The position numbers were made by a program, and so were the translations under genes. DNA of 64,000 bases, from NCBI GenBank assembly GCA_963678485.1, contig OY782882.1, positions 4,066,339 to 4,130,338 on the forward strand, given 5' to 3'. Every line of letters starts with the position of its first letter. The first letter of the stretch is position 1. Of this stretch, positions 1,158 to 58,547 are shown piece after piece. The notes below the pieces were generated by a model. That model saw only the letters and a list, made by a program, of their open reading frames with translations. It did no database searches and was not told the DNA's origin. Source of the stretch: Bacteroidales bacterium. Lineage in GTDB: Bacteria > Bacteroidota > Bacteroidia > Bacteroidales > CAIWKO01.

Positions 1158-4100
1158 ATGAAAAACCTTAAAGGTTGCCTTAAGGCTGCCATTACCTTGT
1201 CCATTTGTATTTTTCTCTTGTTTGACGCCTCAGCTCAGGCACCACAAAGTTTCAACTATCAGGCGGTATGCCGCGATAATTTAGGAAATATTATAGCGAA
1301 TCAGTCTGTAACTCTTAGATTCAATATTTTGGATCTGGCCCCTGGTGGAACCTCGCTTTATCAAGAGACAGATGCTGTAACAACAAATTCTTATGGTTTG
1401 GTGAGTGTAGCAATTGGTGATGGAACCTGGGTTTCCGGTAATTTTCTAAGCATTCCCTGGGCAAGTGGTGAAAAGTATTTGCTCGTTGAATTGAACACTG
1501 GCTCAGGCTTTATAACAATGGGTGCCCCTCAATTATTAAGCGTTCCATATGCGATCTACGCGAATCAATCCGGAACAACTGGTTCTGCGGGACCAACCGG
1601 TCCACAGGGAATCACAGGTCCTACGGGAATTCAGGGCGTAACTGGTGTCACAGGTGTAGGATTAACGGGGGCTCAGGGAGTAACTGGACCAACGGGTGTT
1701 GGGTTAACCGGAGCACAAGGTATAACAGGACCCACGGGAGCGCAAGGTATCACGGGGCCAACCGGAATCGGGTTGACAGGTGCCCAGGGAATCACAGGTC
1801 CTACGGGACTTCAGGGCGTTACCGGTGTCACAGGTGTAGGATTAACGGGGGCTCAGGGAGTAACCGGACCAACGGGTGTTGGGTTAACAGGTGCTCAAGG
1901 TATAACAGGACCCACGGGAACGCAAGGTATCACGGGGCCAACCGGAATCGGGTTGACAGGTGCACAGGGAATCACAGGACCTACGGGGCTTCAGGGTGTA
2001 ACTGGTGTCACAGGTGTAGGATTAACGGGGGCTCAGGGAGTAACCGGACCAACGGGTGTCGGATTAGCCGGAGCGCAAGGTATAACAGGACCCACGGGCG
2101 CGCAAGGTATCACTGGGCCAACCGGAATCGGGTTGACTGGTGCTCAGGGAATCACAGGTCCTACGGGGCTTCAGGGTGTAACTGGTGTAGGATTAACGGG
2201 GGCTCAGGGCGTAACGGGACCAACGGGTGTTGGGTTAACAGGTGCACAAGGTATAACCGGACCCACGGGAGCGCAAGGTATTACGGGGCCAACGGGAATT
2301 GGGCTAACAGGCGCTCAGGGAATCACAGGTCCTACAGGACTTCAGGGTGTGACTGGTGTAGGATTAACCGGAGCGCAAGGTGCTACTGGTCCGACTGGGG
2401 CTGATGGTGCATTAAATGCATGGTCTCTTACTGGTAATACTGGTATGGTGGATGGGACAAATTTCATTGGAACCACAGATAACTCGCCATTCAATATCAG
2501 AGTAAATAATCAAAAAGCCGGCAGGGTTTCACAGACCAACGCCTCCTCATTTTTTGGCTTTGTTGCAGGAAACTCAACTACAGCCACAGGTTTAACAAAC
2601 ACGGCCATGGGGGATAGCACATTTTATACGAATTCCACTGGAGATGCCAATACGGCGATTGGTGCTAAGTCAATGCTGATGAGTGCTTCAGGAAGTTATA
2701 ATAGTGCGGTTGGATATAGCGCCATGTATTCAAGTGTGGCAACCACAGGAAATGCGGCATTTGGCGCCTATGCTTTATTACGAACAACAGGAAGTTACAA
2801 CACCGGAGTTGGATATACAGCACTTAGAAATAATACCTCAGGAACATATAATACCGCCATTGGTCTGGGAGCCCAATTCAACAATATTGCAGGAGGTTAT
2901 AATGCGGCAATTGGAGTGAATTCGCTGTATACTAATGATAGTGGATCTTATAATATTTGCATTGGGTATCGCACAATGTACTTAGTGCCTCAAGGTGATA
3001 ACAATATTGCGATTGGATCAAGAGCCCAATATAGTAGCGGAAGGATTAACAATATTATCGCTATTGGTGATTCCGCATTGTTTAGTAATAGGGCACTATA
3101 TAATACTGCATTAGGTTCAAAAGCCCTGAGTGCAAACACAACAGGAACTTCAAATACTGCAACTGGATTTCGGGCACTAGCCGGGAATACTACAGGGGCT
3201 GGAAATACTGCAAATGGCGCTCTGGCATTGTATAATAGTACCTCTGGATGGGGAAACACAGCGATGGGTAGTGGAGCCCAATTGATGAATAGTACAGGAT
3301 ATGCGAATACAGCATTAGGTTATAATGCTTTAGATGCGAATGAAGATGGAGACAATAATACTGCTGTTGGTTTTGGCGCATTAGGTAGTAACACTATTGA
3401 TGACAATACTGCAGTTGGAACATATGCTTTGTATGATAATACTTCTGGTTGGCGAAATGCAGCTCTTGGTAACAATGCCCTTTCAAATAATTCCAATGGT
3501 AGTTATAATGCGTCTTTCGGATCGAATTCATTATACAATAATAATGGAAGTTATAATGCAGCGTTGGGGGCATATGCGTTATATTCAAGTTTGGATGTTT
3601 CCGATAATGTTGCCTTAGGCTATAATACACTTTATTTTAATACTTCAGGAGATGCGAATGTTGCCATAGGGTCATTAGGCCTTTATAATAACAGAGGTGC
3701 AGGAAATGTGGCTGTTGGCAGGACTGCATTAATGGCCAATACAACTGGAAATTGTAATACAGCCATTGGTTGCGATGCGGACGTTTCAGCGGGAACATTT
3801 ACCAATGCCACTGCAATAGGGTATACGTCCACTGTTAATGCCTCTGATAAAATCAGACTTGGTGATGCAACAGTTACTGTCATTGAAGGTCAGGTAGCAT
3901 ATACATATCCAAGCGACGGGCGCTTTAAATTCAATGTAAAGGAAGAAGTAAAAGGATTGGATTTTATCCTGAAGCTTCGTCCTGTAGTCTATAATTTCGA
4001 TACCAAGAAGTTTGATAGTTTTCTGATGAAAAATATGTCGGACAGTTTGCGTAATGCACGAATGAAAGACCAGAACTACGATCGTTCCACTCAGGCTGTC

Positions 4101-7211: not shown

Positions 7212-7303
7212 GGAGAGGTGGGTGAGCGGCTGAAACCAACAGTTTGCTAAACTGTCATACTGGGTAACTGGTATCGGGGGTTCGAATCCCCCCCTCTCCG
7301 CCA
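7212..7303 (+). tRNA. tRNA-Ser (anticodon GCT) with a long variable arm and encoded CCA
   Basis: Acceptor stem GGAGAGG pairs with CCTCTCC. The anticodon loop is TTGCTAA. A long extra arm precedes the T-arm GGGGGTTCGAATCCCCC, and the gene ends GCCA. Confidence 0.85.
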
Positions 7304-8060
7304 ATCAATCAAAAGTCCCGCAACAGCGGGATTTTTTTTTACCCCCGAACGCGCAAACAACGTTTGCAAGCGTCCGGGGGTAAAAAAAAATCGCGAGTGC
7401 GCAGCACACGGGACTTTTGATTGATTGAAGCCCCCACGCCGGGATCACGGAGCAGCGTTCGGGGCGAATTATCACGAACACTGCTCCGTAATCCCCACTC
7501 AATATTGTTTTTTCAACAGACGCGCAAACAACGTTTGCAAGCGTCCGGGGGTAAAAAAAATTGATCAAGCCGGATTGTTGAGGAAAGGTTTGAAGGTAAT
7601 ATTTGCAGGACTTCTTATTGTTTATCTCTCTGATTTCGCATTTCGTTTCTCGGATCTCTGATCTGTTTTTCTCTTTTCACCCTTTTCTCTTACTTCTTTC
7701 AGGCGCACCTACCCGACTGCGTCATTCGGGCGGGCCTGCCCGAATGACATCGGTCAGGCGGGGATTTCCGATTTACGAATGACGCAATTAACGAACATTC
7801 TATAATCGAGATATGTGGAATCCATGATTTTGCTTCAGTATTTTGAAATCAGAGATCCGAGAAACGAAATTAGAAGTACGAGATAAACCAAAGGAAAAGC
7901 CCGTGCTCACCAACTTTTCGTCTTGATCCAAAAAAAATCGCGAGTGCGCAGCACACGGAACTTTTGATAGATTCTATGATGCATGTTTTGCTTTTCTTAT
8001 AAACTCACTCAGGTGGTTGTTCCGATTTATCCAAAATGCTGTACCTTTGCATATCTAATA
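7304..8060. repeat. Complex intergenic region of nested inverted and direct repeats
   Basis: There is an outer inverted repeat at 7304-7320 and 7409-7427. A 42-bp element is present twice, at 7347-7389 and 7519-7560. The element AAAAATCGCGAGTGCGCAGCACACGGnACTTTTGAT is present twice, at 7385-7420 and 7931-7975. There is an 11-bp-stem hairpin at 7721-7748. One forward copy (about 7614-7680) and one inverted copy (about 7843-7890) of the 46-bp family arrayed at 54.3 kb are present. Confidence 0.6.
7317..7340 (+). terminator. Intrinsic terminator after tRNA-Ser
   Basis: The hairpin CCCGC-aaca-GCGGG is followed by a T9 run. Confidence 0.55.
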
Positions 8061-28204: not shown

Positions 28205-28260
28205 AAATACGAATATTAATATTGATGCATTATAGAATTTGAACCGATGTTGAAATGTGC

Positions 28261-28495
28261 GATGCCTGCGGCATCGGGATGGCGGTGCGGGTGTGATGGG
28301 AGCTACAAAGGTGGGATGCCTTCGGCATCCATTGATGCGGTGCGGTTGTGATGGGTGTTACAATGGGGGATGCCTTCGGCATCCTAGGGAGATGTGCAGT
28401 TTTGGGAGGCGTAGCATGGTTGCGATGCCTTCGGCATCTTTGGCGTGGTGCAGTTTTGAGAGATGTCAGATGGGTGAGATGCCTATGGCATCGGG
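28261..28495 (+). repeat. Array of 5 REP-like units (~56 bp each), each built around the hairpin GATGCC-TTCG-GGCATC
   Basis: Hairpins recur at about 28261, 28318, 28373, 28428 and 28477. The inter-hairpin segments are also mutually similar (GGTGCGGNTGTGATGGG, GTGCAGTTTTGRGAGG). Further GAAG and TTCG tetraloop hairpins lie at 28618-28636 and 28668-28691. Confidence 0.75.
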
Positions 28496-28702: not shown

Positions 28703-29182
28703 TCAAATATCTAAATTTGAATATTCAATCCAATCAAATAGAAATCGATCTTCATAAGATATTTCAAATTTTTTCAAGAATCCTATGTATTCTGATTTAA
28801 AAGCGGTTTTACTATGATGTTCTTTTTGCCGCATAATATACTTGACTACTCTATCAATTTGTGATTGGCTATAAGTAAATGCCCCATATCCTTCTTGCCA
28901 GTAAAATTTCTGTTTGGTGAATTTTCCCTCGTTTATAAATGTGTTGCTTGATTTTTTTATTTCTCTCACCAAATCCGAAATCCGACATTCGGGTTTCATC
29001 CCAATAAAAATATGTATGTGGTCTGGCATACCATTTATTGCAAGCATTTTTTGACCATTTTTCTGAACGATGCCAGTGATGTATTTGTGCAATCGTTCTT
29101 CCCATGAAGGGAGGATCAGTGCATTTCGATGTTTTACAGCGAAAACCACCTGAACGTGGAGTTTTGAAAATGTTCCGGACAT
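28703..29182 (-). CDS. tnpA: IS200/IS605-family Y1 (HUH) transposase TnpA, possibly a REP-associated tyrosine transposase (RAYT)
   Basis: The ORF is 159 aa. The HUH motif is HIHIF. The upstream motif is HVQVVFAVKHR. There is a C-terminal Tyr region (QEGYGAFTYS). Hairpin repeats lie on both sides of the gene. Confidence 0.75.
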   Translation of the reverse strand: MSGTFSKLHVQVVFAVKHRNALILPSWEERLHKYITGIVQKNGQKMLAINGMPDHIHIFIGMKPECRISDLVREIKKSSNTFINEGKFTKQKFYWQEGYGAFTYSQSQIDRVVKYIMRQKEHHSKTAFKSEYIGFLKKFEISYEDRFLFDWIEYSNLDI

Positions 29183-29301
29183 AATTAGATTTATTTGTTT
29201 TGTTTCTGTAAAAATAAAAATAATTTAAATGAAAAATTGATTGTTTTTTTGTGATACCCCTTCGGGGTCGGATACAAATATTATTGTTTTTCATAATGTG
29301 C

Positions 29302-29580
29302 GATGCCGACGGCATCGGGATGGCGGTGCGGGTGGGATGGGAGCTACAAAGGGGGGATGCCTTCGGCATCCAGGGTAGCAGTGCAGTTTTGAGAGGCGTA
29401 ATAGGGTTGCGATGCCTTCGGCATCCATGCTGTGTTGCAGGTGTGATGGGTGTCACCTAGGGGGGATGCCTTCGGCATCCAACAGAGCAGTGCAATTTTG
29501 AAAGGCGTAGCATGGTTGTGATGCCTTCGGGGTCAATGGGCAGCAGTGCAAGTTGTGCGACCCCGAATGGGTCGAACACA
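29302..29580 (+). repeat. Second array of 5 REP-like hairpin units, paralogous to 28261-28495, ending in the hairpin GTGCGACCCCGAATGGGTCGAACA
   Basis: The first unit is nearly identical to the first unit of the left array. GATGCCTTCGGCATC recurs. The terminal hairpin at 29553-29577 is a direct repeat of the one at 28668-28691. Confidence 0.75.
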
Positions 29581-49606: not shown

Positions 49607-52051
49607 ATGAAAACGATATTTACGATAATGATGGTTCTGCTTACCGGAATGAGTAGCATATATGCGCAATTGCCTTCACCCAATGCCAGGATTGCTGGCG
49701 GCGGTGGCACTATTCGCGGGAAAGTCCGTGATGCACAATCCGGGCAAATGATGGAATATGCAAATATCGTATTATTAAACGAAAAAGATTCATCGATGGT
49801 TGATGGATGTATTACTGCGATTGATGGAACGTTCGAATTAAAGAATATTCCTTTTGGAAATTACATATTATCAGTACAGTTTGTCGGATATACCAAGAAA
49901 AATCTTCAAGGAATCACGCTGAATAAGGAATCCAATGTGAAAGATCTTGGATTAATCGAACTAAGTATTTCTTCGAGTAATCTTGCCGGTGTTGAAATTA
50001 GCTCAGAGCAAAAAACCATTGATTTTAAAATCGATAAAAAGGTTGTGAATGTAAACAAGGATATTGTTGCCTCCACCGGTTCTGCTGTAGATGTGTTGCG
50101 TAATGTGCCTTCGGTGCAGGTTGATGCCGAAGGAAATGTTACTGTTCGCGGCAGTTCAAATTTTACTGTCCTTATTAACGGCCGGCAGGTTAGTCAGGCT
50201 GCAAATGATGTATTAAAACAAACTCCGGCCTCCACCATTGAGAATATCGAAATCATCACTAATCCTTCAGCCAAGTATGATCCGGATGGAACTGCAGGTA
50301 TTCTCAATATTATTTTAAAGAAAAATCGTGGTGATGGAATGAGTGGTTTGATCAATGCATCCTATGGCACATTCGAAAAATATTCAACCGATGCTCAGCT
50401 TAGCGTGAAAACAGGCAAATTCAATATATATGCTGGCGCAGAATATAAAAATCGTTTGGACAAGGTTACTCAAAATATCGAGAAAACCTGGTTCACAAAC
50501 GACACAGGATACAACACATTTTCCAGAGTTGATCAGCGTTATCAACCATGGCATTATAAAGTGAATTTAGGAGCCGACTGGAGTATTGATAAAAACAATA
50601 CACTCAGTGCCACGGGAACATATTTTCGTCAGGATTTTATTATCGAATCGCCCGTAAGCTATCACATCTTTTCAGAACCTTCCACGACTGAAACCTGGAA
50701 GAAAATCACCAATGATCTGTTGCTGAAACATCATTGGACTGAAGGAACGCTGAATTATGTTCATACATTTAAGAAACCCGGTCATAGCCTTTCTATCAAC
50801 GGTACATACAATGCATGGAGAGGGGATAAGAGCGATGAACAATTGAGTTCAATTACCGATGGCGAATGGGTGGCCATCTCTACCGAATCGCAGCGTCGTC
50901 GTTTTTGGGACAATGGAAGTTCAAGAATATCGGGCGATATCGATTATACTTTGCCTGTAAATGACCATATAACAATTGAAGCTGGCTATTCAGGAGATAT
51001 CACATCATTTAACTCTAAATATAATGTAGATAATTTTGATCCGGATTTGAATAGCTGGGTTACCGATAGTAGTTTGTCCAATACGGTTGATTTTGATTAT
51101 ATGATTCATGCCGTTTATGGGACCATGAGTGGTGAGGTTTGGGGATTGGGCTATCAATTGGGCTTACGTGGTGAATATTTTAAGCGCGATTTAATCACTG
51201 CTGTTCCAGATACCAATTACGCAATGGAGATTTGGAGTCTGTTCCCAACGTTTCACGTAAGCAAGAGCTTTAAGAAAGGTCATCAGTTGATGTTTAGTTA
51301 TAGTAGGCGTGTAAACCGTCCATCAGTTATGGAATTAAATCCTTTGCCATATTTTAGCGATGAGTATTTAGTACATCGCGGGAATCCTGCACTACGTCCG
51401 GAGTACACGAATTCATTTGAACTATCCTATCAGAAAACATTTGGAGAATCCTTCATTTCATTCGGGACATATTATCGTTCAACTGAGGATAAAATGGCGC
51501 AGATCATTTATATCCATGAAGGTCAAACCCAACTCACCAATAAGAACGTTACCCGAGATTGGGCTAGTGGAGTAGAGCTCATGGCCAATTTAAGCATTAA
51601 AAAGTTTTTCCGCTTGAATGTAAGTTTTGATGGTTTCTATTATCAGCTCGTGGGCGATGAATCGGCGGGAATTATGTCGCGGAATATTGTCTCTGCAAAT
51701 GTCGGTCTGAATCCAACATTCATCTTTAAATCTGGAACAACTATACAGATACAATCAATGTATAATGCACCCAGTGTTGATCCGATTGGTGATATGAAAG
51801 GATTTTTTATGATTAATGCAGCAGTGAAGCAAAACTTCCTGAAAGGAAAACTCAGCCTGACATTAAGCGCTAATAATCTGTTTAATCTTGCTAAGTACAG
51901 TTATTTGGACGAGAATCCACAGTATCGTCATCATTTTGATTACATCCCTGAAGGGAATGTATTTAACATCGGCATCAGTTATCGAATAAATAATTATGCA
52001 CGTAGGGCGTCAGCACGACAAGGCAATGGCGCCATCGACGTTGGTTTTTAA
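49607..52051 (+). CDS. TonB-dependent receptor-like outer-membrane protein with an N-terminal carboxypeptidase-regulatory-like domain
   Basis: There is a signal peptide. A CarbopepD_reg-like segment is present. The plug region is VDVLRNVPSVQVDAEGNVTVRGS. There is a long beta-barrel ending in a C-terminal Phe. Confidence 0.7.
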   Translation: MKTIFTIMMVLLTGMSSIYAQLPSPNARIAGGGGTIRGKVRDAQSGQMMEYANIVLLNEKDSSMVDGCITAIDGTFELKNIPFGNYILSVQFVGYTKKNLQGITLNKESNVKDLGLIELSISSSNLAGVEISSEQKTIDFKIDKKVVNVNKDIVASTGSAVDVLRNVPSVQVDAEGNVTVRGSSNFTVLINGRQVSQAANDVLKQTPASTIENIEIITNPSAKYDPDGTAGILNIILKKNRGDGMSGLINASYGTFEKYSTDAQLSVKTGKFNIYAGAEYKNRLDKVTQNIEKTWFTNDTGYNTFSRVDQRYQPWHYKVNLGADWSIDKNNTLSATGTYFRQDFIIESPVSYHIFSEPSTTETWKKITNDLLLKHHWTEGTLNYVHTFKKPGHSLSINGTYNAWRGDKSDEQLSSITDGEWVAISTESQRRRFWDNGSSRISGDIDYTLPVNDHITIEAGYSGDITSFNSKYNVDNFDPDLNSWVTDSSLSNTVDFDYMIHAVYGTMSGEVWGLGYQLGLRGEYFKRDLITAVPDTNYAMEIWSLFPTFHVSKSFKKGHQLMFSYSRRVNRPSVMELNPLPYFSDEYLVHRGNPALRPEYTNSFELSYQKTFGESFISFGTYYRSTEDKMAQIIYIHEGQTQLTNKNVTRDWASGVELMANLSIKKFFRLNVSFDGFYYQLVGDESAGIMSRNIVSANVGLNPTFIFKSGTTIQIQSMYNAPSVDPIGDMKGFFMINAAVKQNFLKGKLSLTLSANNLFNLAKYSYLDENPQYRHHFDYIPEGNVFNIGISYRINNYARRASARQGNGAIDVGF

Positions 52052-52340
52052 GCCTTGTCAACATCGTTCTTTATATCGGAGACCTCTTGAATAAACCCTG
52101 ACATCACGCCCAAGCTGGTTGATCAGGCAAAGCTAAACACACACACATGCTTTTTCGATTATTTTTGGTTAGATAATTCGTAATGCCTGAGGGCAGTGGT
52201 GTCGGGGAGTTCAGAGGGTATAACAGTCTATTAACATTGTGTTTTTTAAAAAAAAGTACTTTTGTAATAGAAACGCATTGTGTTTTATCCGAATTAAAGA
52301 TAAGCCCGCGAATCACGGAAACTCAACCAATAAAAAATAA

Positions 52341-54275
52341 ATGCTAATTTTACAACCAATGAAAAGATTATTTATCTCAATGCAGTTGATTATTATGGCA
52401 ACAGTATCGTTGTTTGCACAAGGGAATCAGGGCTCGAAGGTGCCAGATTATTCCATGACCGAGCGTAAGGATATTCCTGTAGCATATACATGGAAACTTG
52501 AGGATATGTACGCAAACATGGATGTGTGGAAAACAGATAAACAGCGCCTTGTTGATATGGCATCAAGAATTGATGTCCTTGGTAAAGACTGGACAGCAGA
52601 TGCTACAAAGATGCTGGCATTTCTGAAACTCTCCGATGATATTTCCATGCTTGGTGAAAAGCTCTATTGCTATGTTTCACTACAGAGCACCGGAGACCTC
52701 AGCAATACCGAGTATCTCGGATTGAAAGGTGAAATGGGAGCCTTTTTCGTTGATTTAGGTTCACGTCTTTCTTTTGTTAATGAAGACATCTTAAAATTAG
52801 GTCAGGAAAAATTCTCTGCATATCTTAAGCAGGAGCCGGGTTTGAAAACCTATGCTTTTGGCATTGAGCAGGTACTTCGGGTGAAAGATCATATTCTTCC
52901 TTCCAATGAGCAGAAAATTGTTTCGCTTAGTGGATTGTTTTCCGGTGCGGCTGGTGAAGCAGCAAATGTGCTCAGCAATGTAGAACTTCCTGCACCTGAT
53001 GTTACGCTTACCGATGGCACCAAAGTTACTTTGAATGTTGCCAATTACATGAAATATCGTGGTTCCAAGGTTGCCGCTGATCGCAGCATTGTGATGCATG
53101 CTTTCTGGAACAATTACAAAAAGTTTGAAAATACTTTTGCCGCATTACTGAATGGTGAAATCAAAGCTCATTACTTCGCTGCCACTGTTGCAAAATATCC
53201 TACCTGTCTGCAAGCCTCTCTGGATGCAAACAATATCGATACTAAAGTCTACACTCAATTGATTGCTTCTGTGAATGCACATTTGAGTTCGCTGCACCGC
53301 TATCTTAAACTGAAGCAACAATTACTGGGTTTGCAGAAATACAGTTATGATGATATTTATGCTTCGGCTGTGAAATCAGTAAATAAGGTATACACCTACG
53401 ATGAAGCTGTTGCGCTTATCGAAGAAGCAATGAAACCTTTGGGTGATGATTATGTAAATGTTCTGAAGAGAGGATTTAGCGAACGTTGGGTGGATATCTA
53501 TCCTAATAAAAGCAAAGAAAGTGGTGCTTTCAGCATGGGTGTATATGGTGTGCATCCGTATGTAAAAATGAACTATGACGGGGAATACAATGCTGTAAGT
53601 ACATTAGCTCACGAATTGGGTCACTCCATGCATTCATATTATTCAAGCAAGACTCAGCCTTATGCAACGAATGATTATGCTACTTTCCTTGCTGAGATTG
53701 CATCGACCTTTAATGAGAATATGCTCATGCATCAATTGCTGAAAACCGAGACCGATGATATGTACAAGTTATTTATCCTCGATCGTTATTTGGATGGCGT
53801 ACGCGGCACTATCTTCCGTCAGACTTTATTTGCTGAATTTGAATTAGCCATGCATACGCGTGTTGAAGAAGGTCAAACACTGACCGCTGATTGGCTGGAT
53901 GCAAAATATCTTGAACTGACCCGCAAATATTATGGTGATGATTTAGGTGTATGCAAGGTAGATGATTACATTCAACAAGAGTGGAGTTATATTCCTCATT
54001 TTTACATGAACTATTATGTTTACCAATATGCAACCGGATTGATTGCATCAATGGCATTAAGCGAAAAGGTACTATCTGGTGATGTTGCCGCACGCGACAA
54101 GTATATTACTTTCCTTTCAGCAGGAAGTAGTGATTATCCATTGAATATTCTGAAGAATGCAGGAGTTGATATGACCACCTCTACCTCCACAGATGCGGCA
54201 TTCCAGAATTTCGACAATCTGGTATCAGAAATGGAAAAGATCGTGGAGCGTTTGAAGAAAGCAGGAAAATTGTAA
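52341..54275 (+). CDS. pepF: M3-family oligoendopeptidase (PepF-like), secreted
   Basis: The HELGHSMH zinc motif is present. Length is 644 aa. The likely start is at MKRLFISMQ..., at about 52359, with a signal peptide. Confidence 0.75.
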   Translation: MLILQPMKRLFISMQLIIMATVSLFAQGNQGSKVPDYSMTERKDIPVAYTWKLEDMYANMDVWKTDKQRLVDMASRIDVLGKDWTADATKMLAFLKLSDDISMLGEKLYCYVSLQSTGDLSNTEYLGLKGEMGAFFVDLGSRLSFVNEDILKLGQEKFSAYLKQEPGLKTYAFGIEQVLRVKDHILPSNEQKIVSLSGLFSGAAGEAANVLSNVELPAPDVTLTDGTKVTLNVANYMKYRGSKVAADRSIVMHAFWNNYKKFENTFAALLNGEIKAHYFAATVAKYPTCLQASLDANNIDTKVYTQLIASVNAHLSSLHRYLKLKQQLLGLQKYSYDDIYASAVKSVNKVYTYDEAVALIEEAMKPLGDDYVNVLKRGFSERWVDIYPNKSKESGAFSMGVYGVHPYVKMNYDGEYNAVSTLAHELGHSMHSYYSSKTQPYATNDYATFLAEIASTFNENMLMHQLLKTETDDMYKLFILDRYLDGVRGTIFRQTLFAEFELAMHTRVEEGQTLTADWLDAKYLELTRKYYGDDLGVCKVDDYIQQEWSYIPHFYMNYYVYQYATGLIASMALSEKVLSGDVAARDKYITFLSAGSSDYPLNILKNAGVDMTTSTSTDAAFQNFDNLVSEMEKIVERLKKAGKL

Positions 54276-54296
54276 GATGTTATTTGTATTGATGAC

Positions 54297-54325
54297 GGGC
54301 CGCCCGAGAGGGCGGCTCTTTTTTT
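54297..54325 (+). terminator. Intrinsic terminator after pepF
   Basis: The hairpin GCCGCCC-gaga-GGGCGGC is followed by a T7 run. Confidence 0.7.
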
Positions 54326-54960
54326 CTCTCTCATTTCGTATCTCTCTCCTCTGTTCTTTGATCTGTCTTTTCTCTCTCATTTCGTATTTCGCTATTCTGT
54401 TCTCTGATCTGTCCTTTCTCTCTCATTTCGTATCTCGCTACTCTGTTCTCTAATCTGTCCTTTCTCTCTCATTTCGTATCTCGCTACTCTGTTCTCTGAT
54501 CTGTCTTTTCTCTCTAATCTCGTATCTCGCTACTCTGTTCTCTGATCTGTCTTTTCTCTCTCATTTCGTATCTCGCTCCTCTGTTCTCTGATCTGTCTTT
54601 TCTCTCTCATTTCGTATCTCGCTACTCTGTTCTCTGATCTGTCTTTTCTCTCTCATTTCGTATCTCGCTATTCTGTTCTCTGATCTGTCCATTCTCTCTC
54701 ATTTCGTATTTCGCTAATCTGTTCTCTGATCTGTCCTTTCTCTCTAATCTCGTATTTCGCTACTCTGTTCTCTGATCTGTCCTTTCTCTCTCATCTCGTA
54801 TCTCGCTACTCTGTTCTCTGATCTGTCTTTTCTCTCTCATTTCGTATCTCGCTACTCTGTTCTCTGATCTGTCTTTTCTCTCTCATTTCGTATCTCGCTA
54901 CTCTGTTCTCTGATCTGTCTTTTCTCTCTCATTTCGTATCTCGCTATTCTGTTCTCTAAT
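54325..54960 (+). repeat. Tandem array (~14 copies) of a 46-bp pyrimidine-rich unit, TCTCTCTCATTTCGTATCTCGCTACTCTGTTCTCTGATCTGTCTTT
   Basis: The period is 46 bp with a few point variants. The array is capped by inverted partial copies at 54971-55010 and 55065-55105. Two further units (55540-55640) and an inverted copy (55644-55683) lie on the other side of the gene at 55123-55497. Confidence 0.85.
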
Positions 54961-55122
54961 CTAATTTTTAAATCAGAGAACAGAAAAACGAAATTAGAGA
55001 TACGAGATGTGCAAGGAAGAAAGGCAGAATAGGCTTTTATGTTTGTTGCCGTGATTAGGCTAATAAATCAGAGAACAGAGAAACGAAATTAGAGATACGA
55101 GATGTCCTGCAACGGAGTTTTT

Positions 55123-55497
55123 TTACCTAAGATTCTCTTGATCTCTGTTTTTTACTGCAGTATTGACACTGGCAACAAAAATTGCAATCAATTCATTGTT
55201 CTCCGCAATGCTCTTCTCAAAGGTTCTATTCGGGGTTATTAGATTGGCCTTTTGTAAAATTTGAAGGCAAATATGGGTTTCTCTTAACTCTTTTAGAACC
55301 ACTTTGATTTTGTGGATGAAGTCATTTCTTGATTCACTGCTCTGACTTTCAGCAAAGTTAAGTGATACAGCTGTGCCGGATCTTACAAGTTGACCTGAAA
55401 GGTGATTGCCCGCTTTGGTAGGCTTAATCTTTTCTGAGAGTTCAATAATTCCTACGGAAAAGCTGATAAGCCTCTCCTCTGTTTTTTGTTTTTCCAT
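55123..55497 (-). CDS. Four-helix-bundle protein (23S rRNA intervening-sequence protein family)
   Basis: The ORF is 124 aa with the family pattern ...GQLVRSGTAVSLNFAESQS..S..DFI.K..V.LKELRET..CL.I. Confidence 0.6.
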   Translation of the reverse strand: MEKQKTEERLISFSVGIIELSEKIKPTKAGNHLSGQLVRSGTAVSLNFAESQSSESRNDFIHKIKVVLKELRETHICLQILQKANLITPNRTFEKSIAENNELIAIFVASVNTAVKNRDQENLR

Positions 55498-55711
55498 GAT
55501 TTTGTTTTTTGTTTTGTTTTCATTTTTTTTCTCTGTGCTTTTCTGTCTTTTCTCTCTAATCTCGTATCTCGCTTCTCTGTTCTCTGATCTGTCTTTTCTC
55601 TCTCATTTCGTATCTCGCTATTCTGTTCTCTAATCTAATTTTTAAATCAGAGAACAGAAAAACGAAATTAGAGATACGAGATGTCAGTACTCCAATTACC
55701 AGTGATTAGCC

Positions 55712-57058
55712 CTACTCCGTAATTACCCGAACCTCAGTCCGGCGGTTCTTTGCTTTGTTGGCATCGGTGGTATTCTCCACCAGCGGCATTTTCTCCCCAT
55801 AGCCCTTGGCAAGCACCCGGTTGGATGCGATACCTTTGTCGGTGAGGTATTTTTTTACTGCGTCAGCGCGACGTTGAGATAAAACCATATTATGTGAATC
55901 ATCACCATCACTATCTGTATGGCCGGCGAGTTCAACTTTCATATTTGGATCAGATTTCAGGCTATTGTATAATTGATCCAGCGCAGGATAAGAGGCAGGT
56001 TTGAGATCCCATTTATCGGTATCAAAGTAAACATTTTCCAGTGTGTAAGTGCGGATATAGTCTTCAACCACTTTTATGCGGACCATGCAGTCGAACTCAG
56101 AAAGTTTTGAGTCGAGAGGTAATTCAAGTTTTAGATTGAAGCTTTTTCCAAATTTCTCAACCACCACGTCATAGGTTTTATGCTGCTCTACGTAAGTGTT
56201 GCATTTGCCTTCAATATCGGTTTCTCCCGTATACAGCACAGTTCCGTTTAGTTTTAGTTTTATCACTGCAGTGCCTTCTGCAACGCCAATGTCATCGGTT
56301 ACAATGAAATTTACTTTACATTTACCGGCATTGGGGTCGTTTGTATTTTGTGTGGCTGCAGCACCCAACGAAATTTCGAAAATGGTTTTATCGGCCAGCG
56401 GAACAGTAAGTGTAGAGCCATAGTCATTACCCCCGGATTTTGTTTTTAATGATACAATGAGCCCTTGCTTCAGCATCACAACCACCTCCCCAGCAGCATT
56501 ACTGGTGTAATCTCCAATCTTCTCACCGCTTGCTTTGAATAAGCTTATAAGTTGTCCTGCCAATGGCACATTATCCTTGCCTTTCAACGCAACTTTAACT
56601 TCACAGTTCTTTGTTCCGGCTGGAACCACAGCACTTTGGCCCTGATCCGTAAGAATCTTGCACGTTGTACTGAAATATGCAGCTGTAGCATCGGTGCTTA
56701 TTGGTACATCGAAATACCAGTCCTGCCCACTCTCAACGAAGAATACCGAATAGGTGACGCCTCTTTTTAGTTTCGTCTTAAAATCCCCATTAGCATCAGT
56801 TTTCCCTGCTGCAGCAACGGTTTTGTCCGGATTAAATACTTGCAGACTTTTCAATGCAATCACCTTGTCAGACTTATCTTTAAGTTTGATTGTTGTGAGA
56901 ATATACTCGTCATTAACACCGACCTGAGCACTCAGGGCAAAGGAGACCATAATCAGGAAAAAGCTGAAGAATGTTTTCATAATGAAGTATTTTTTCTGGG
57001 TTAAAGATACGAAAACAGCGGTTGACGTAAAATACAAACGATAATATTTAATTAACAT
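55712..57058 (-). CDS. OmpA-family outer-membrane/peptidoglycan-associated protein with N-terminal Ig/CarbopepD-like repeats
   Basis: The C-terminal OmpA_C-like domain has NVYFDTDKWDL...LAGHTDSDG...NMVLSQRRADAV. The likely start is the internal Met MKTFFSFFLIMVSFALSAQ, at about 56980. Confidence 0.7.
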   Translation of the reverse strand: MLIKYYRLYFTSTAVFVSLTQKKYFIMKTFFSFFLIMVSFALSAQVGVNDEYILTTIKLKDKSDKVIALKSLQVFNPDKTVAAAGKTDANGDFKTKLKRGVTYSVFFVESGQDWYFDVPISTDATAAYFSTTCKILTDQGQSAVVPAGTKNCEVKVALKGKDNVPLAGQLISLFKASGEKIGDYTSNAAGEVVVMLKQGLIVSLKTKSGGNDYGSTLTVPLADKTIFEISLGAAATQNTNDPNAGKCKVNFIVTDDIGVAEGTAVIKLKLNGTVLYTGETDIEGKCNTYVEQHKTYDVVVEKFGKSFNLKLELPLDSKLSEFDCMVRIKVVEDYIRTYTLENVYFDTDKWDLKPASYPALDQLYNSLKSDPNMKVELAGHTDSDGDDSHNMVLSQRRADAVKKYLTDKGIASNRVLAKGYGEKMPLVENTTDANKAKNRRTEVRVITE

Positions 57059-58547
57059 TACTGGGCAGGCTGAATTTTGTGGGGCTATTTACTTTAGTAA
57101 ATTGTGTTATATTATATATGCCCGGAATGTGAATTGTACTTTTTGTCGAATAGTTGGATTTGAGTTCATTGCCAACGATGTCTGCGCCGAAAGCAAAGGA
57201 TGATTCACAATCAAGATATATGATTTTATCACAGTGATCAAGCACATCTGAAGGCACCATTTGCAAACTATTCACTGCATAGATATGGTCATTAAGTAGC
57301 AATTCTTTGGTATGTGAATAATCTGCAAATGCAATGTTGTTATAATGGTAACAGAATTCTAATGAAGAGTAATCAGGGCTAATAATTACTGCATCTTTGG
57401 TTTGTCGTAAACTCTTAATTTTTTCAACAACATCTTTAATATTACGATTATTAGAAGGGGCAGGATCAAAAAATAAACACATTACCAAAAGGGGAACAAT
57501 GGCCAAGGTCGTTGCAAGGATTTTCTTTAATGGCAATAATTCGAAAAAACCTGTAAGGACAAGATAAAGTGCTGGTGATGTAAAAAGGAGATAGCGATCG
57601 AGAAAGATGGGGATAAAAAAAGATATTGCAAACATTCCAATCCAAGGGATTAAAAAAAATAGTAAAACAATAATCCATGCTTTATGATTTCTAAGATTGA
57701 CAATGAATTCGCGATATTTCTTGTTGATGATTATAATCAATAGACCTATGCCTCCAACAGCAATAAACGCTAAAGTAACCCAACGTGAATTCAGAAATCG
57801 GTTTATATTACCGTAAAGTTCGCTCCATTGTGGTGGTCTTACCCAAGTACCTCCGGACGATACGATGAAACGATTATAAGCGATAATTATATTGGGAATG
57901 TATGCGATAATGAGAAGTGCAAAAGATAGTAGTACGGACTTCCAAAAATATTTCCGCCAGGGAAAGGCAACAAGAATGAATAACTGAACTAATACAGGAA
58001 TCCAACCGAAATAATGGGAATACACGAGAAGGATATTGTTTAGAAGCAACCAGACAAAGGTAATTTTCTTTTCAGGAGAACCCGTTATCGAAAGCAATAG
58101 GTAAATATTCCAAATTGAAAGAAGAACAAACAAAGGGTACACTCTTGCTTCGTGCGAAAAATATATCTGCATCGTAGATATGGTAAATACACTTGTTGCC
58201 AAAATCGCAGCACGTTGGGACAAGAATTTTGCTCCGGTATAAAATAAAATACCAGCAGCCATTGAACTAAAGATAACTGAAGGTAAACGAACAGACAATG
58301 TATTGATGCCGAAAAGTTTGATCCAGTAATGGAGAATAATAAAGTGGAGTGGAGGATTGTTCTCTGTTTTGAGCATATTAAATAGCGAACTTAAATCATG
58401 TTGTGCCCACCATATACTAAATGGTTCATCCATGGCAACATCGTTCCTATTAATGAACAATAAGCGCAGTATAAGGTTTACTACAATAAAAAGAATTACA
58501 CCAATAATCCACTGTTTTTTTGTGAATGTTGGTGTCGCTATTTTCAT
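57048..58547 (-). CDS. GT39/ArnT-like (dolichyl-phosphate-mannose-protein-mannosyltransferase-type) integral-membrane glycosyltransferase
   Basis: It has about 11 TM helices. The first-loop acidic motif is VAMDEPFSIWWAQ. A C-terminal soluble domain is present. Confidence 0.5.
   Translation of the reverse strand: MKIATPTFTKKQWIIGVILFIVVNLILRLLFINRNDVAMDEPFSIWWAQHDLSSLFNMLKTENNPPLHFIILHYWIKLFGINTLSVRLPSVIFSSMAAGILFYTGAKFLSQRAAILATSVFTISTMQIYFSHEARVYPLFVLLSIWNIYLLLSITGSPEKKITFVWLLLNNILLVYSHYFGWIPVLVQLFILVAFPWRKYFWKSVLLSFALLIIAYIPNIIIAYNRFIVSSGGTWVRPPQWSELYGNINRFLNSRWVTLAFIAVGGIGLLIIIINKKYREFIVNLRNHKAWIIVLLFFLIPWIGMFAISFFIPIFLDRYLLFTSPALYLVLTGFFELLPLKKILATTLAIVPLLVMCLFFDPAPSNNRNIKDVVEKIKSLRQTKDAVIISPDYSSLEFCYHYNNIAFADYSHTKELLLNDHIYAVNSLQMVPSDVLDHCDKIIYLDCESSFAFGADIVGNELKSNYSTKSTIHIPGIYNITQFTKVNSPTKFSLPSNVN

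Follow-up and report, generated by a model that had tools for sequence, protein, structure and literature searches.

The 46-bp tandem array in the 64-kb stretch of Bacteroidales DNA analysed here (hereafter, the window) is a 14-fold amplified heptad-repeat arm, which makes it one end of an inserted palindromic gene cassette. We consider it probable, at about 0.6, that the whole block at 54322-55683, sited between the convergent genes pepF and ompA, belongs with the small palindromic gene cassettes known first from 23S rRNA intervening sequences (IVSs).

Anatomy of the repeat block

Tandem Repeats Finder delimited a period-46 array at 54322-54962 (13.9 copies, 94% matches, score 1114), in agreement with the roughly 14 copies reported by the first-pass annotation, and a second run of the same unit at 55542-55636 (2.1 copies). 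Two cores of the unit, 22-24 nt long, gave 16 plus-strand matches each, with 0.00 expected in shuffles. The inverted copy AATCAGAGAACAGARAAACGAAATTAGAGATACGAGATG occurs exactly at 54971, 55066 and 55645; inverted capping copies had been noted before, but there are three of them rather than two. Likewise, the hairpin described at the end of the array is present across AATTTTTAA, with a stem much longer than the 12 bp first given: it forms about 35 pairs over 83 nt and folds at -38.5 kcal/mol as gene-strand RNA (z = -7.3). The features of the locus, and of a related pair of sequences elsewhere in the window, are as follows.

54297..54318 (+): pepF intrinsic terminator, left insertion border
54322..54962 (-): array, 14 units of 46 bp, each with five GA-N5 heptads and the linker AAGACAGATCA
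54901..55010 (+): exact direct repeat of 110 bp, equal to 55575-55684; comprises unit, loop and inverted copy and includes the hairpin block
54971..55009 (+): inv2, inverted arm copy; the cap hairpin at 54922-55009 consists of this copy, unit 14 and the loop AATTTTTA
55010..55065 (no strand): spacer of 56 nt separating the two inverted copies 3' of the gene
55066..55104 (+): inv1, 3' arm of the proposed cassette, 18 nt past the stop codon of the four-helix-bundle gene; its partner is the 5' arm unit at 55553-55590
55123..55497 (-): four-helix-bundle gene, 124 aa, PF05635 / TIGR02436
55498..55544 (-): A-rich leader from the 5' arm to the ATG
55545..55636 (-): 5' arm, two 46-bp units; the GA strand is the gene strand
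55645..55683 (+): inv0, inverted copy capping the 5' arm as a hairpin, 28 nt past the ompA stop codon; right insertion border
7624..7664 (-): orphan arm, diverged, with six GA dinucleotides still in phase; left half of an ORF-less palindromic element
7846..7885 (+): orphan arm, right half; pairing partner of 7624-7664, with a structured insert some 170 nt long (z = -7.2) between the two

On the gene (minus) strand, the 46-bp unit reads GAGAACA GAGTAGC GAGATAC GAAATGA GAGAGAA, followed by an 11-nt linker, AAGACAGATCA. Each array unit carries five GA dinucleotides in phase, and in the inverted copies the GA offsets are 7, 14, 21, 28 and 35. Identity at lag 7 within the unit is 0.59, the heptads being degenerate except for the GA. 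The units of the array differ from one another at 0-5 positions, each with its own substitution pattern, and stops occur in every frame, closing all six; the array is thus non-coding and not a collapsed duplicate, and a coding reading was ruled out by the same stops. As RNA, the array is unstructured. The junction on the ompA side is recovered exactly in two independent short-read assemblies, ERR12015700 and ERR12015701, each of which then breaks inside the repeat.

The copies of the same family that had been placed about 47 kb away were recovered as the orphan pair at 7624-7664 (-) and 7846-7885 (+), with E = 1e-10 to 3e-12 against the inverted-copy profile. A profile search of the 64-kb window found no arm copies besides the locus and this pair, and the simple GA-N5 pattern matched in the window only at the same places.

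The four-helix-bundle protein

The enclosed gene had been assigned to the four-helix-bundle family, and profile searches support this: the ORF at 55123-55497 (-) matches PF05635 (E = 2.5e-13, 50.6 bits, cutoff 33.8) and TIGR02436 (E = 6.8e-21, 74.5 bits, cutoff 24). Its 124-aa product keeps 44 of the 44 residues invariant in its subfamily, and the AlphaFold model consists of four helices with a mean pLDDT of 93.7. The closest solved structures found with Foldseek were 2RLD (TM 0.76-0.88), an entry with five chains, and 2GSC (TM 0.73-0.84), described as a homopentamer (PMC4990558). No PADLOC or PHROG family was found for the element.

Insertion at the pepF/ompA junction

The block, about 1.36 kb long (54322-55683), lies in a neighbourhood (49607-58547) encoding a TonB-type receptor (assigned by synteny with the loci L092 and L093), PepF, OmpA and PMT_2. 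In a relative whose PepF is 84% identical, the order TonB receptor, pepF, ompA and PMT_2 is kept, and the 113-nt pepF-ompA intergenic region contains no cassette. Given this empty site in a syntenic relative, sequence comparison shows the block to be a lineage-specific insertion. A second relative, with a PepF 91% identical, carries the 46-bp unit directly past the pepF terminator, where its contig ends. The borders of the block (...ctcttttttt/ctctctc and ...acgagatg/tcagtac, the stroke marking the junction) show no visible direct duplication, and the intergenic region at the empty site of the relative is not alignable base by base.

Searches for a known element at this site returned little. 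Positions 54000-56000 matched no rRNA or other Rfam family; for the arms and hairpins there was no Rfam family either, only sub-threshold noise resembling miRNA hairpins. A sigma-70 scan found no promoter-like site at the array. The cap sequence had no match in species-representative genomes, and the arm core gave ten chance matches in metagenomes, without flanking similarity and without a four-helix-bundle gene. Viral relatives were absent among 2.9 million viral contigs. The earlier suggestion of a mobile or recombinogenic cassette is upheld as regards insertion, shown by the empty site. A transposase and a target-site duplication were looked for and not found, nor was this subfamily found on a phage or plasmid, so that the word mobile reflects the presence/absence pattern only.

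Heptad arms around four-helix-bundle genes in other genomes

The comparison set comprised 81 homologous loci from the FCB group and other phyla, in which a simple pattern, (GA-N5)x4-GA, was scored upstream of the gene on the gene strand and downstream on the opposite strand. The pattern was present upstream in 70/81 loci, and its inverse downstream in 62/81. Up to 300 nt from the gene its density was 4.60 per kb, as opposed to 0.059 per kb elsewhere and 0 in shuffles. A profile of the arm, searched against the same loci, detected it upstream in 64/81, downstream in 62/81 and on both sides in 55/81. In this profile the GA frequency is 0.93-1.00 at six positions spaced exactly 7 nt, and counts of GA-to-GA lags reach 268 at lag 7, 204 at lag 14 and 144 at lag 21, compared with about 30 at other lags. 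In the homologous loci the distance from the arm to the start codon is about 10-20 nt, and that from the arm to the stop codon is 0-30 nt.

Conservation of the arms is at least equal to that of the genes that they enclose, with 74-75% identity in the arms, 68% in the coding nucleotides and 48% in unrelated flanks; some 5' arms from different phyla are 95-97% identical while their coding sequences are 68-74% identical. In nine distant loci the heptad varies by locus, both arms changing together. Distant homologues in cyanobacteria, Chloroflexota and Treponema also have the inverted heptad-arm architecture, as does the 23S IVS of Coxiella, and on cyanobacterial plasmids the heptamers AATCCCC, AATTCGT and AATTCAA flank four-helix-bundle genes. 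The cyanobacterial homologues have the GA strand on their downstream side, not upstream, which argues against a single fixed strand-specific role. Tandem amplification recurs as well: arms are amplified at L065 (period 46, at least 5.6 copies), L033 (period 34, at least 5.7 copies) and L064 (period 48, 3.5 copies), while L008, L022, L042 and L075 contain 3.5-5 copies of a hairpin unit about 100 nt long. Amplified arms in other genomes thus occur on either side of the gene and also as hairpin units. As judged from these alignments and profiles, the four-helix-bundle gene family is associated with inverted heptad arms across phyla, the arms are conserved and co-varying, and their tandem amplification is recurrent in other genomes.

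The arms of the window were not detected by the canonical-arm profile (nhmmer, E >= 0.6), so that relatedness rests on the heptad rule, position and orientation, not on sequence identity. The question raised by the first-pass annotation, whether four-helix-bundle genes are generally bracketed by this repeat, has a positive answer as to the kind of repeat: they are generally bracketed by inverted GA-N5 heptad arms, although the sequence is not the same. Co-orientation of the gene with its neighbours (68/75) was not above the local background of 85%. We found no published description of a general association between four-helix-bundle genes and heptad arms.

Pairing of the arms

When the whole cassette was folded as gene-strand RNA, 25 contiguous pairs formed around the ORF (z = -6.6). 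The stem between inv1 and the 5' arm unit at 55553-55590 measures 25+5+4 bp, and a mini-construct of it folds at -49.5 kcal/mol. Across loci, cognate arms pair better than non-cognate arms (mean fractional rank 0.33, p = 1.3e-5), with in-register pairing of 75.2% against 72.9 +/- 0.8%. The arm duplex is more stable in the sense than in the antisense RNA in 50/79 loci (p = 0.017); the window's own proximal duplex is slightly better in the antisense RNA. Substitutions compatible with G-U pairs showed no significant asymmetry (110 vs 86, p = 0.10). In both arms the GA/TC is invariant rather than co-varying, and pairing alone is therefore insufficient to explain the conservation.

Relationship to known systems

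The link to rRNA intervening sequences made in the first-pass annotation is apt. In Coxiella, GACAGAT heptamers lie upstream of the S23p ORF of the IVS, their number varies among strains, and an RNase III site is located at the first repeat (PMC4990558). Like the window, the 23S rRNA IVSs with an S23p ORF (Coxiella burnetii, Leptospira, Brucella) contain a PF05635 ORF of about 0.4-0.5 kb within stem-forming terminal inverted repeats; the stem is 28 bp in the Coxiella IVS and 25+5+4 bp here, lengths in keeping with the at least about 20 bp of an IVS. GA-N5 heptamers stand directly upstream of the ATG in both, three GACAGAT in Coxiella, a string also found in the window's unit, and five heptads in each of two units in the window. 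Both the Coxiella IVS and the window cassette may be regarded as inserted selfish sequence (PMC4990558). Unlike an IVS, the window cassette is not in a 23S rRNA helix (9, 25 or 45) but intergenic, 3' of ompA; its arms, of five or six heptads, exceed those of an IVS in length and occur in amplified form, as 2 and 14 copies that end in hairpin caps; and its processing by RNase III is predicted by analogy.

Intergenic heptamer repeats form a second group of relevant systems. They include the cyanobacterial STRR (CCCCAAT and others), GGGAATC of Xanthomonas and GGGGATT of Nostoc (PMC4692102), as well as the TAACTGA repeats of Beggiatoaceae, cyanobacteria and Bacteroidetes (PMC4679880). Like the window arms, the STRR, GGGAATC and TAACTGA repeats are intergenic, have a 7-nt period and, in the right phase, read GA-N5. 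They are often near start codons and often in convergent (inverted) pairs, with contigs breaking in them. The repeats described in those two papers are perfect microsatellites, whereas the window heptads are degenerate except for the GA and organized in a 46-nt higher-order unit. A term search of PMC4692102 and PMC4679880 returned no mention of four-helix-bundle, S23 or intervening-sequence names.

Other likenesses are more partial. The Avd accessory protein of diversity-generating retroelements (DGRs) has its fold and superfamily in common with the window protein at a sequence identity of 13-14%, and Foldseek retrieved 4DWL (TM about 0.7) together with the ribonucleoprotein structures 8UBE and 8UB7. 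Avd forms a pentamer and, as part of a ribonucleoprotein, makes contact with nucleic acid; unlike it, the window gene has no nearby reverse transcriptase or template/variable repeat pair. In RAYT/REPIN systems and in MITE-like palindromes cut by RNase III (for example, the Correia elements of Neisseria), one gene has its own repeat on both sides, as inverted copies or as arrays, palindromic doublets without an ORF lie elsewhere in the genome, and the elements are transcribed within host operons. Unlike RAYT, a Y1 transposase, the window gene encodes a four-helix-bundle protein without a known catalytic motif; unlike REP sequences, its repeats are AT/GA-rich heptads rather than GC-rich hairpins, and their dispersal within the available sequence is low. 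The ring proteins TRAP and HutP read short RNA motifs at periodic spacing, a UAG every 7 nt in the case of HutP. In each of their sites an invariant di- or trinucleotide recurs at a constant interval, the spacers being free to vary, and the number of motifs equals the number of subunits. The resemblance to the heptad arms would be one of analogy, the TRAP and HutP fold being unrelated to PF05635.

Proposed origin and function of the cassette

In the reading that we favour, the cassette would follow a basic plan, seen also at homologous genes in many phyla, in which a 5' arm with GA-N5 heptads in phase is followed by a short leader, by the four-helix-bundle ORF and finally by an inverted arm. 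In the lineage of the window, head-to-tail duplication of an arm of about 46 nt (five heptads and a linker) would have produced the two units upstream and the 14 units beyond the 3' arm, both runs being capped by an inverted arm. Transcription may occur by read-through from ompA, as there is no terminator between ompA and the cassette. The arms of this RNA would then pair into a double-stranded stem that encloses the ORF and measures 25 bp or more, and by analogy with the IVSs of Coxiella and Leptospira, RNase III may cut this stem, releasing or inactivating the cassette RNA and leaving the host transcript unharmed. The invariant GA every 7 nt in both arms suggests a sequence-specific multimeric reader, for which the pentameric four-helix-bundle protein itself is the most economical candidate because one unit holds five heptads; its binding to the arms is putative. 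The 14-copy array could have arisen by slippage or unequal recombination between arms, and it is probably unstable in copy number and without a separate function.

More speculatively, and by analogy with RAYT/REPIN, the PF05635 four-helix-bundle proteins and heptanucleotide hairpin repeats might constitute one widespread protein-plus-repeat system. The pentamer would read (GA-N5)n arms on RNA or single-stranded DNA and control the processing, maintenance or spread of heptad palindromes, with gene-carrying cassettes as master copies and ORF-less pairs as dependants. We hold this wider proposal tentatively, as a possibility with the odds clearly against it.

It is also conceivable, though we consider it unlikely, that the cassette is an element mobile at the DNA level, with the arms serving as terminal inverted repeats for a transposase or recombinase acting in trans or for the four-helix-bundle protein. 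ORF-less pairs such as 7624-7885 would then be non-autonomous, MITE- or REPIN-like derivatives, and the array would result from repeated self-insertion or end duplication. The filled site here and the empty site in a close relative fit such an element, as do the terminal inverted repeats, the recurrence of the plan with strongly conserved ends in unrelated contexts and phyla, and the passenger-like position of distant homologues within helicase/methylase operons. Hairpins of an inverted and then a forward arm adjoin many cassettes, an orphan palindromic pair lies 47 kb away, and the window itself holds a classical analogue, a Y1 transposase flanked by its REP hairpin arrays. However, the only ORF of the cassette is the four-helix-bundle gene, not a transposase, and neither border shows a visible target-site duplication. 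The tight, fixed distance of the arms from start and stop codons is unlike that of transposon ends. Arms are rare away from the gene (0.06 per kb), dispersed copies in 64 kb amount to the one orphan pair, and the 2.9 million viral contigs hold no relative. Several groups of loci are, moreover, syntenic, and the cassette thus appears to be inherited mostly vertically.

Two further readings concern the array rather than the cassette. The first-pass annotation had raised the idea of a contingency locus, in which the number of 46-bp copies would switch or tune the four-helix-bundle gene, ompA or pepF. Near-perfect tandem arrays of this kind are usually variable in length, short-read assemblies of the source organism and of the relative break in the array, and heptamer number differs among Coxiella strains. 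This idea nevertheless found no support and is improbable: the array is separated from the 3' end of the gene by two inverted arms and lies at a convergent junction, outside ORFs and promoter spacers and with no promoter-like site; the unit length of 46 is not divisible by 3 and every frame is closed; and amplified arms elsewhere, which flank the gene on one side or the other and also take the form of hairpin units, look like a by-product of the arm and not like a tuned switch. Least probable of all is that the array arose as an artefact of assembly, or that it is a neutral minisatellite with no relation to the gene. Such repeats are hard to assemble, yet the units have distinct substitution patterns, both borders recur in independent assemblies and in a related organism, and the repeat class is tied to the gene family at 81 + 9 other loci.

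Several other candidates were rejected. Some canonical arms resemble the Bacteroidetes -33/-7 pair, but a promoter role of the 5' arm was dropped, since the motif varies from arm to arm and is missing in those of the window, and the sigma-70 scan was empty. An integron cassette (attC) or CRISPR does not apply to contiguous units without spacers, with no Rfam match and no adjacent integrase or cas gene. Nor is the locus a DGR, as it has no adjacent reverse transcriptase and no template/variable repeat pair, the arms being the only repeats present.

Implications

The locus joins two old puzzles, the very large S23p four-helix-bundle family, which has DGR relatives, and the intergenic heptamer repeats of bacteria. 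Heptamer repeats such as STRR, GGGAATC and TAACTGA have been known since 1990. They are over-represented in several phyla and, to our knowledge, have long gone unexplained; we likewise know of no function for the S23p family. In practical terms, heptad arms are break points of short-read assemblies, and a very simple rule suffices to recognize the cassette in annotation.

From Bacteroidota to cyanobacteria to a genuine rRNA IVS, inverted heptad arms in which an invariant GA recurs at 7-nt intervals systematically bracket four-helix-bundle genes. Binding of (GA-N5)5 by the pentamer, cutting of the arm stem by RNase III and dependence of heptad hairpins on the gene become testable questions. If the proposed protein-plus-repeat system is real, the 'IVS protein' family, including the ancestors of DGR Avd, and the heptamer repeats would both acquire a function.

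The repeat block between pepF and ompA

The 46-bp array between the convergent genes pepF and ompA consists of amplified copies of an arm belonging to an inserted four-helix-bundle (4HB) gene cassette, and inverted arms of GA-N5 heptads are a family-wide companion of 4HB genes. The block spans positions 54322-55683, and the features in question are the following.

Repeat features and 4HB gene of the window
54322-54962: array of period 46, 13.9 copies, 94% matches (Tandem Repeats Finder; copy number as assembled)
55542-55636: second run of the same 46-bp unit, 2.1 copies (Tandem Repeats Finder)
54971, 55066 and 55645: the three exact occurrences of the 39-nt inverted version AATCAGAGAACAGARAAACGAAATTAGAGATACGAGATG
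54901-55010 and 55575-55684: exact 110-bp duplication (unit, loop and inverted arm)
55123-55497, minus strand: 4HB gene, 124 aa (PF05635 and TIGR02436)
7624-7664, minus strand, and 7846-7885, plus strand: orphan pair of arms

The unit consists of the heptads GAGAACA, GAGTAGC, GAGATAC, GAAATGA and GAGAGAA, followed by the linker AAGACAGATCA. Each of its two halves gave 16 matches, all on the + strand, and none in shuffled sequence, and the array units carry 0-5 departures from the consensus each, in combinations that differ between units. All six frames of the array are closed, and its + strand is 80% pyrimidine. Read on the gene strand, the locus has an inverted arm 28 nt past the ompA stop codon and, beyond a loop, two forward units; then come a 47-nt A-rich leader, the 4HB gene, 18 nt, an inverted arm and a 56-nt spacer, after which one more inverted arm is separated by a loop from 14 forward units, and these lead to the terminator of the convergent pepF. 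Aligned with 24 homologues, the encoded protein retains every one of the 44 invariant residues, and its predicted structure has four helices (pLDDT 93.7), with 2RLD (BT_0352) and 2GSC (Xcc0516) as best structural matches; DGR Avd is a more distant one.

A profile of the inverted copies, searched against the 64 kb, returned only one extra pair (7624-7664 and 7846-7885), bearing out the single forward and inverted copies that the first-pass annotation had placed about 47 kb away. This pair is predicted to form a long stem enclosing ~170 nt that are structured and contain no ORF (z = -7.2). Around it, at 7300-7960 and downstream of tRNA-Ser (7212-7303), long palindromes and repeated segments crowd together, among them the palindrome caatcaatcaaaagtcccg...cgggacttttgattgattg and the repeated acccccgaacgcgcaaacaacgtttgcaagcgtccgggggt (~7341 and ~7510); this nest might be the remnant of an attachment site.

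Two other repeats lie in the window. A gene between its own repeats is also represented by the 159-aa IS200-like Y1 transposase at 28703-29182 on the minus strand (PF01797, E = 9.6e-28), with GC-rich hairpin arrays GGATGCCTTCGGCATCC of 54-55-nt period on both sides (28253-28492 and 29290-29560); gene and arrays together represent the classical case of a REP-associated transposase (RAYT) and its REP/BIME clusters. The other repeat, at 1605-2359, has a 180-nt unit (4.2 copies, 89%) in which GGx-rich codons recur with periods of 42 and 27 nt; it looks like the coding sequence of a collagen-like (Gly-X-Y) repeat protein.

Insertion of the block and its presence in other assemblies

A metagenomic contig from a relative at 84% PepF identity retains the order TonB-receptor, pepF, then ompA and PMT_2 on the opposite strand, with a pepF-ompA gap of only 113 nt that contains a bidirectional terminator. 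The corresponding interval in the window is 1,436 nt, and the excess is exactly the block delimited in the first-pass annotation. The repeat is lacking in this relative, whichever event made the difference. Relatives with 74-78% identity have different genes at the junction.

The possibility that the array is an assembly artefact, raised at the outset, is unlikely. In a relative at 91% PepF identity, the pepF terminator is followed by ctctctaatctcgtatctcgcttctc, a unit variant that is present in the window too, and then by the contig end. Two short-read assemblies from separate runs encode an OmpA identical to that of the window and match the ompA-side junction base for base, their contigs stopping 57 and 110 nt inside the cap hairpin. 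Since these other assemblies carry the repeat or its junction, it is no artefact peculiar to a single assembly, and it dates back to the split from the 91% relative or earlier.

Heptad arms around homologous genes

The first homologue examined, 64% identical and located between jag and mnmE, has a 39-nt inverted repeat on both sides that is 90% complementary and unlike the window's in sequence. With 80 further loci, one genome per species, from Bacteroidota (several orders), Ignavibacteria, Neomarinimicrobiota, Cloacimonadota, Balneolaceae, one Phycisphaerae bin and one Dojkabacteria bin, the comparison covered 81 loci. In the printed flanks, a common upstream arm, approximately TGAATATCGAACAAGGATTAACGATTTTTGATTTAAGAAGT, ends 10-20 nt before the ATG, and its reverse complement starts at or just past the stop codon. 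An iterated nhmmer profile detected the forward arm upstream in 64/81 loci, the inverted arm downstream in 62/81 and both in 55/81, with 4.34 matches/kb within 300 nt of the gene versus 0.036/kb elsewhere. Most of the information resides in the GA dinucleotide, which recurs six times in exact 7-nt steps at a frequency of 0.93-1.00, the sequence in between being looser; within 70 nt upstream, the commonest GA-GA distances are 7, 14 and 21 (268, 204 and 144, versus ~30 at other lags).

A model-free pattern of five GA in 7-nt phase was found upstream on the gene strand in 70/81 loci and downstream on the opposite strand in 62/81, at 4.60/kb near the gene, 0.059/kb elsewhere and 0 in shuffles; over the full 64-kb window, it matched only the 54-55-kb locus and the orphan pair. 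The first-pass annotation had proposed checking whether 4HB genes are bracketed by the window's repeat; they are generally bracketed by repeats of this heptad class, the sequences differing between loci. The window arms escape the canonical profile (E >= 0.6) and are therefore unlike canonical arms in sequence. They do follow the heptad rule exactly, with GA at offsets 7, 14, 21, 28 and 35 in the inverted copies and six in-phase GA in the orphan copies, and they stand around the homologous gene in the same places and orientations as the other arms.

In three comparison loci (L005, L016 and L049), small GC-rich hairpins (CCTGCCTGCCGACAGGCAGG and similar) interrupt AT-rich arms that are canonical in other respects. 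The arms thus appear to be a target for, or to tolerate, a second type of miniature palindromic element. In some loci, the 3' arm of the cassette is followed by a forward arm at the usual distance, 10-25 nt before the next host gene; this arm precedes a gene encoding a BMC shell protein (L047, ~3440-3497; L058, ~3430-3485) or guanylate kinase (L005, ~660-713), and may also affect the expression of that gene.

Distant homologues on plasmids, 33-47% identical, follow the same plan with perfect heptamers.

Heptamers at distant homologues
Nostoc and Aulosira: AATTCAA x4 upstream, TTTGAAT x4-5 downstream
Another Nostoc and Dolichospermum: AATTCGT upstream, ACGAATT downstream
Planktothrix: AATCCCC and AATCGTA upstream, GATTTAC-type heptads downstream
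Chlorohelix: GAAGGAT upstream, TCATAAT downstream
Treponema: GAAAGTG and CTCTCCG tracts

Inverted arms are present in 7/9 of these loci (z = 5.5 to 28), and the heptad varies between loci, both arms changing in concert. In cyanobacteria, the GA strand is downstream of the gene, the reverse of the FCB arrangement. Four plasmid loci (L107, L108, L110 and L112) have the 4HB gene and its heptamer arms after or before a helicase-related gene in restriction- or defence-like operons, the neighbour on the other side being an N-6 DNA methylase, HEPN (Swt1) or another large gene.

Tandem amplification of arms

A period of 46 is typical of a whole arm, and tandem arms occur beside the 4HB gene in other genomes too.

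Tandem arms at comparison loci
L065: period 46, at least 5.6 copies (contig end cuts array)
L054: period 47
L064: period 48, 3.5 copies
L033: period 34, at least 5.7 copies (contig end cuts array)
L008, L022, L042, L075, L013, L046 and L035: ~2 to 5 repeats of a complete hairpin of 92-110 nt, made of an inverted and a forward arm

Hairpins with the inverted arm first and the forward arm second stand before the gene in 19 loci and after it in 20. Given these examples, the 14-copy array is the largest case here of a recurrent behaviour and no singular structure; such arrays would most likely arise by slippage at both the arm and the heptad level, and the earlier suggestion of a contingency locus is unlikely.

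MAG and short-read contigs repeatedly start or stop inside arm arrays (L033 1-194, L065 1-259, L096 2108-2135, L097 3276-3359 and L098 2277-2307), and public data probably assemble such cassettes incompletely and undercount them. Two contigs from relatives of the window's organism (L094, 9699-9900 and 11912-11950; L103, 5872-5920) carry plain heptamer microsatellites, (GAATGAT) ~13x, (GACTATC) 5x and (GAATTAT) 4x, beside tracts of the hexamer CGACCT and the heptamer GACTAGG; these are intergenic, on both sides of pepF, with no 4HB gene nearby.

Known heptamer repeats

In Coxiella, the 23S rRNA intervening sequence (IVS) has a 28-bp terminal stem, is cleaved by RNase III and carries tandem GACAGAT heptamers, in strain-dependent number, directly upstream of the S23p start codon, the 5' cleavage site falling at the first repeat (PMC4990558). 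The GGGAATC and GGGGATT repeats, with 70 convergent pairs in Xanthomonas campestris (PMC4692102), and the TAACTGA repeats (PMC4679880) resemble the arms in being GA-N5 when read in the right phase. A term search of both papers found no mention of four helix, S23 or intervening sequence. No description of a general association between the 4HB family and heptamer repeats was found in open-access full text, which is absence of evidence.

Constraint on the arms and the level at which they act

Between random locus pairs, 37-nt arm cores are 74-75% identical, versus 68% for CDS nucleotides and 48% for unrelated flank, and some 5' arms are 95-97% identical across phyla when their genes are 68-74%. 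The cognate downstream arm complements the upstream arm better than those of other loci do (mean fractional rank 0.33, sign test p = 1.3e-5; score 42 cognate versus 20 non-cognate in the window). In-register Watson-Crick pairing is 75.2% for cognate versus 72.9 +/- 0.8% for permuted arms, and upstream departures from the central-heptad consensus are mirrored downstream ~3x as often as expected. By these measures, the two arms co-evolve. The GA/TC positions do not vary in either arm, an invariance that exceeds what pairing alone accounts for.

One serious alternative, close to the mobile cassette first suggested, is a mobile element at the DNA level whose ends are the arms; it is compatible with arms that act in RNA. 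RNA-level pairing is modestly favoured. Arm duplex energy is lower as sense RNA in 50/79 loci (Wilcoxon p = 0.017), and G-U-compatible substitutions number 110 sense versus 86 antisense (p = 0.10). In the window, the cap hairpin folds at -38.5 kcal/mol in the gene-strand transcript versus -29.7 on the other strand, and the second forward unit is predicted to pair with the 3' arm in a long-range stem of 25 contiguous pairs around the ORF (z = -6.6); no structure is predicted for the array on either strand. The cassette is co-oriented with its upstream neighbour in 68/75 loci, against a background of 85% in those loci. As no terminator-like site was found on the minus strand from ompA to the pepF terminator, and no promoter-like site within the block, transcription by read-through from ompA would be the simplest reading. 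The arms most likely form a putative IVS-type stem in such read-through RNA and would additionally be read by a sequence-specific multimer, for which the pentameric 4HB product is the obvious candidate because each unit has five heptads.
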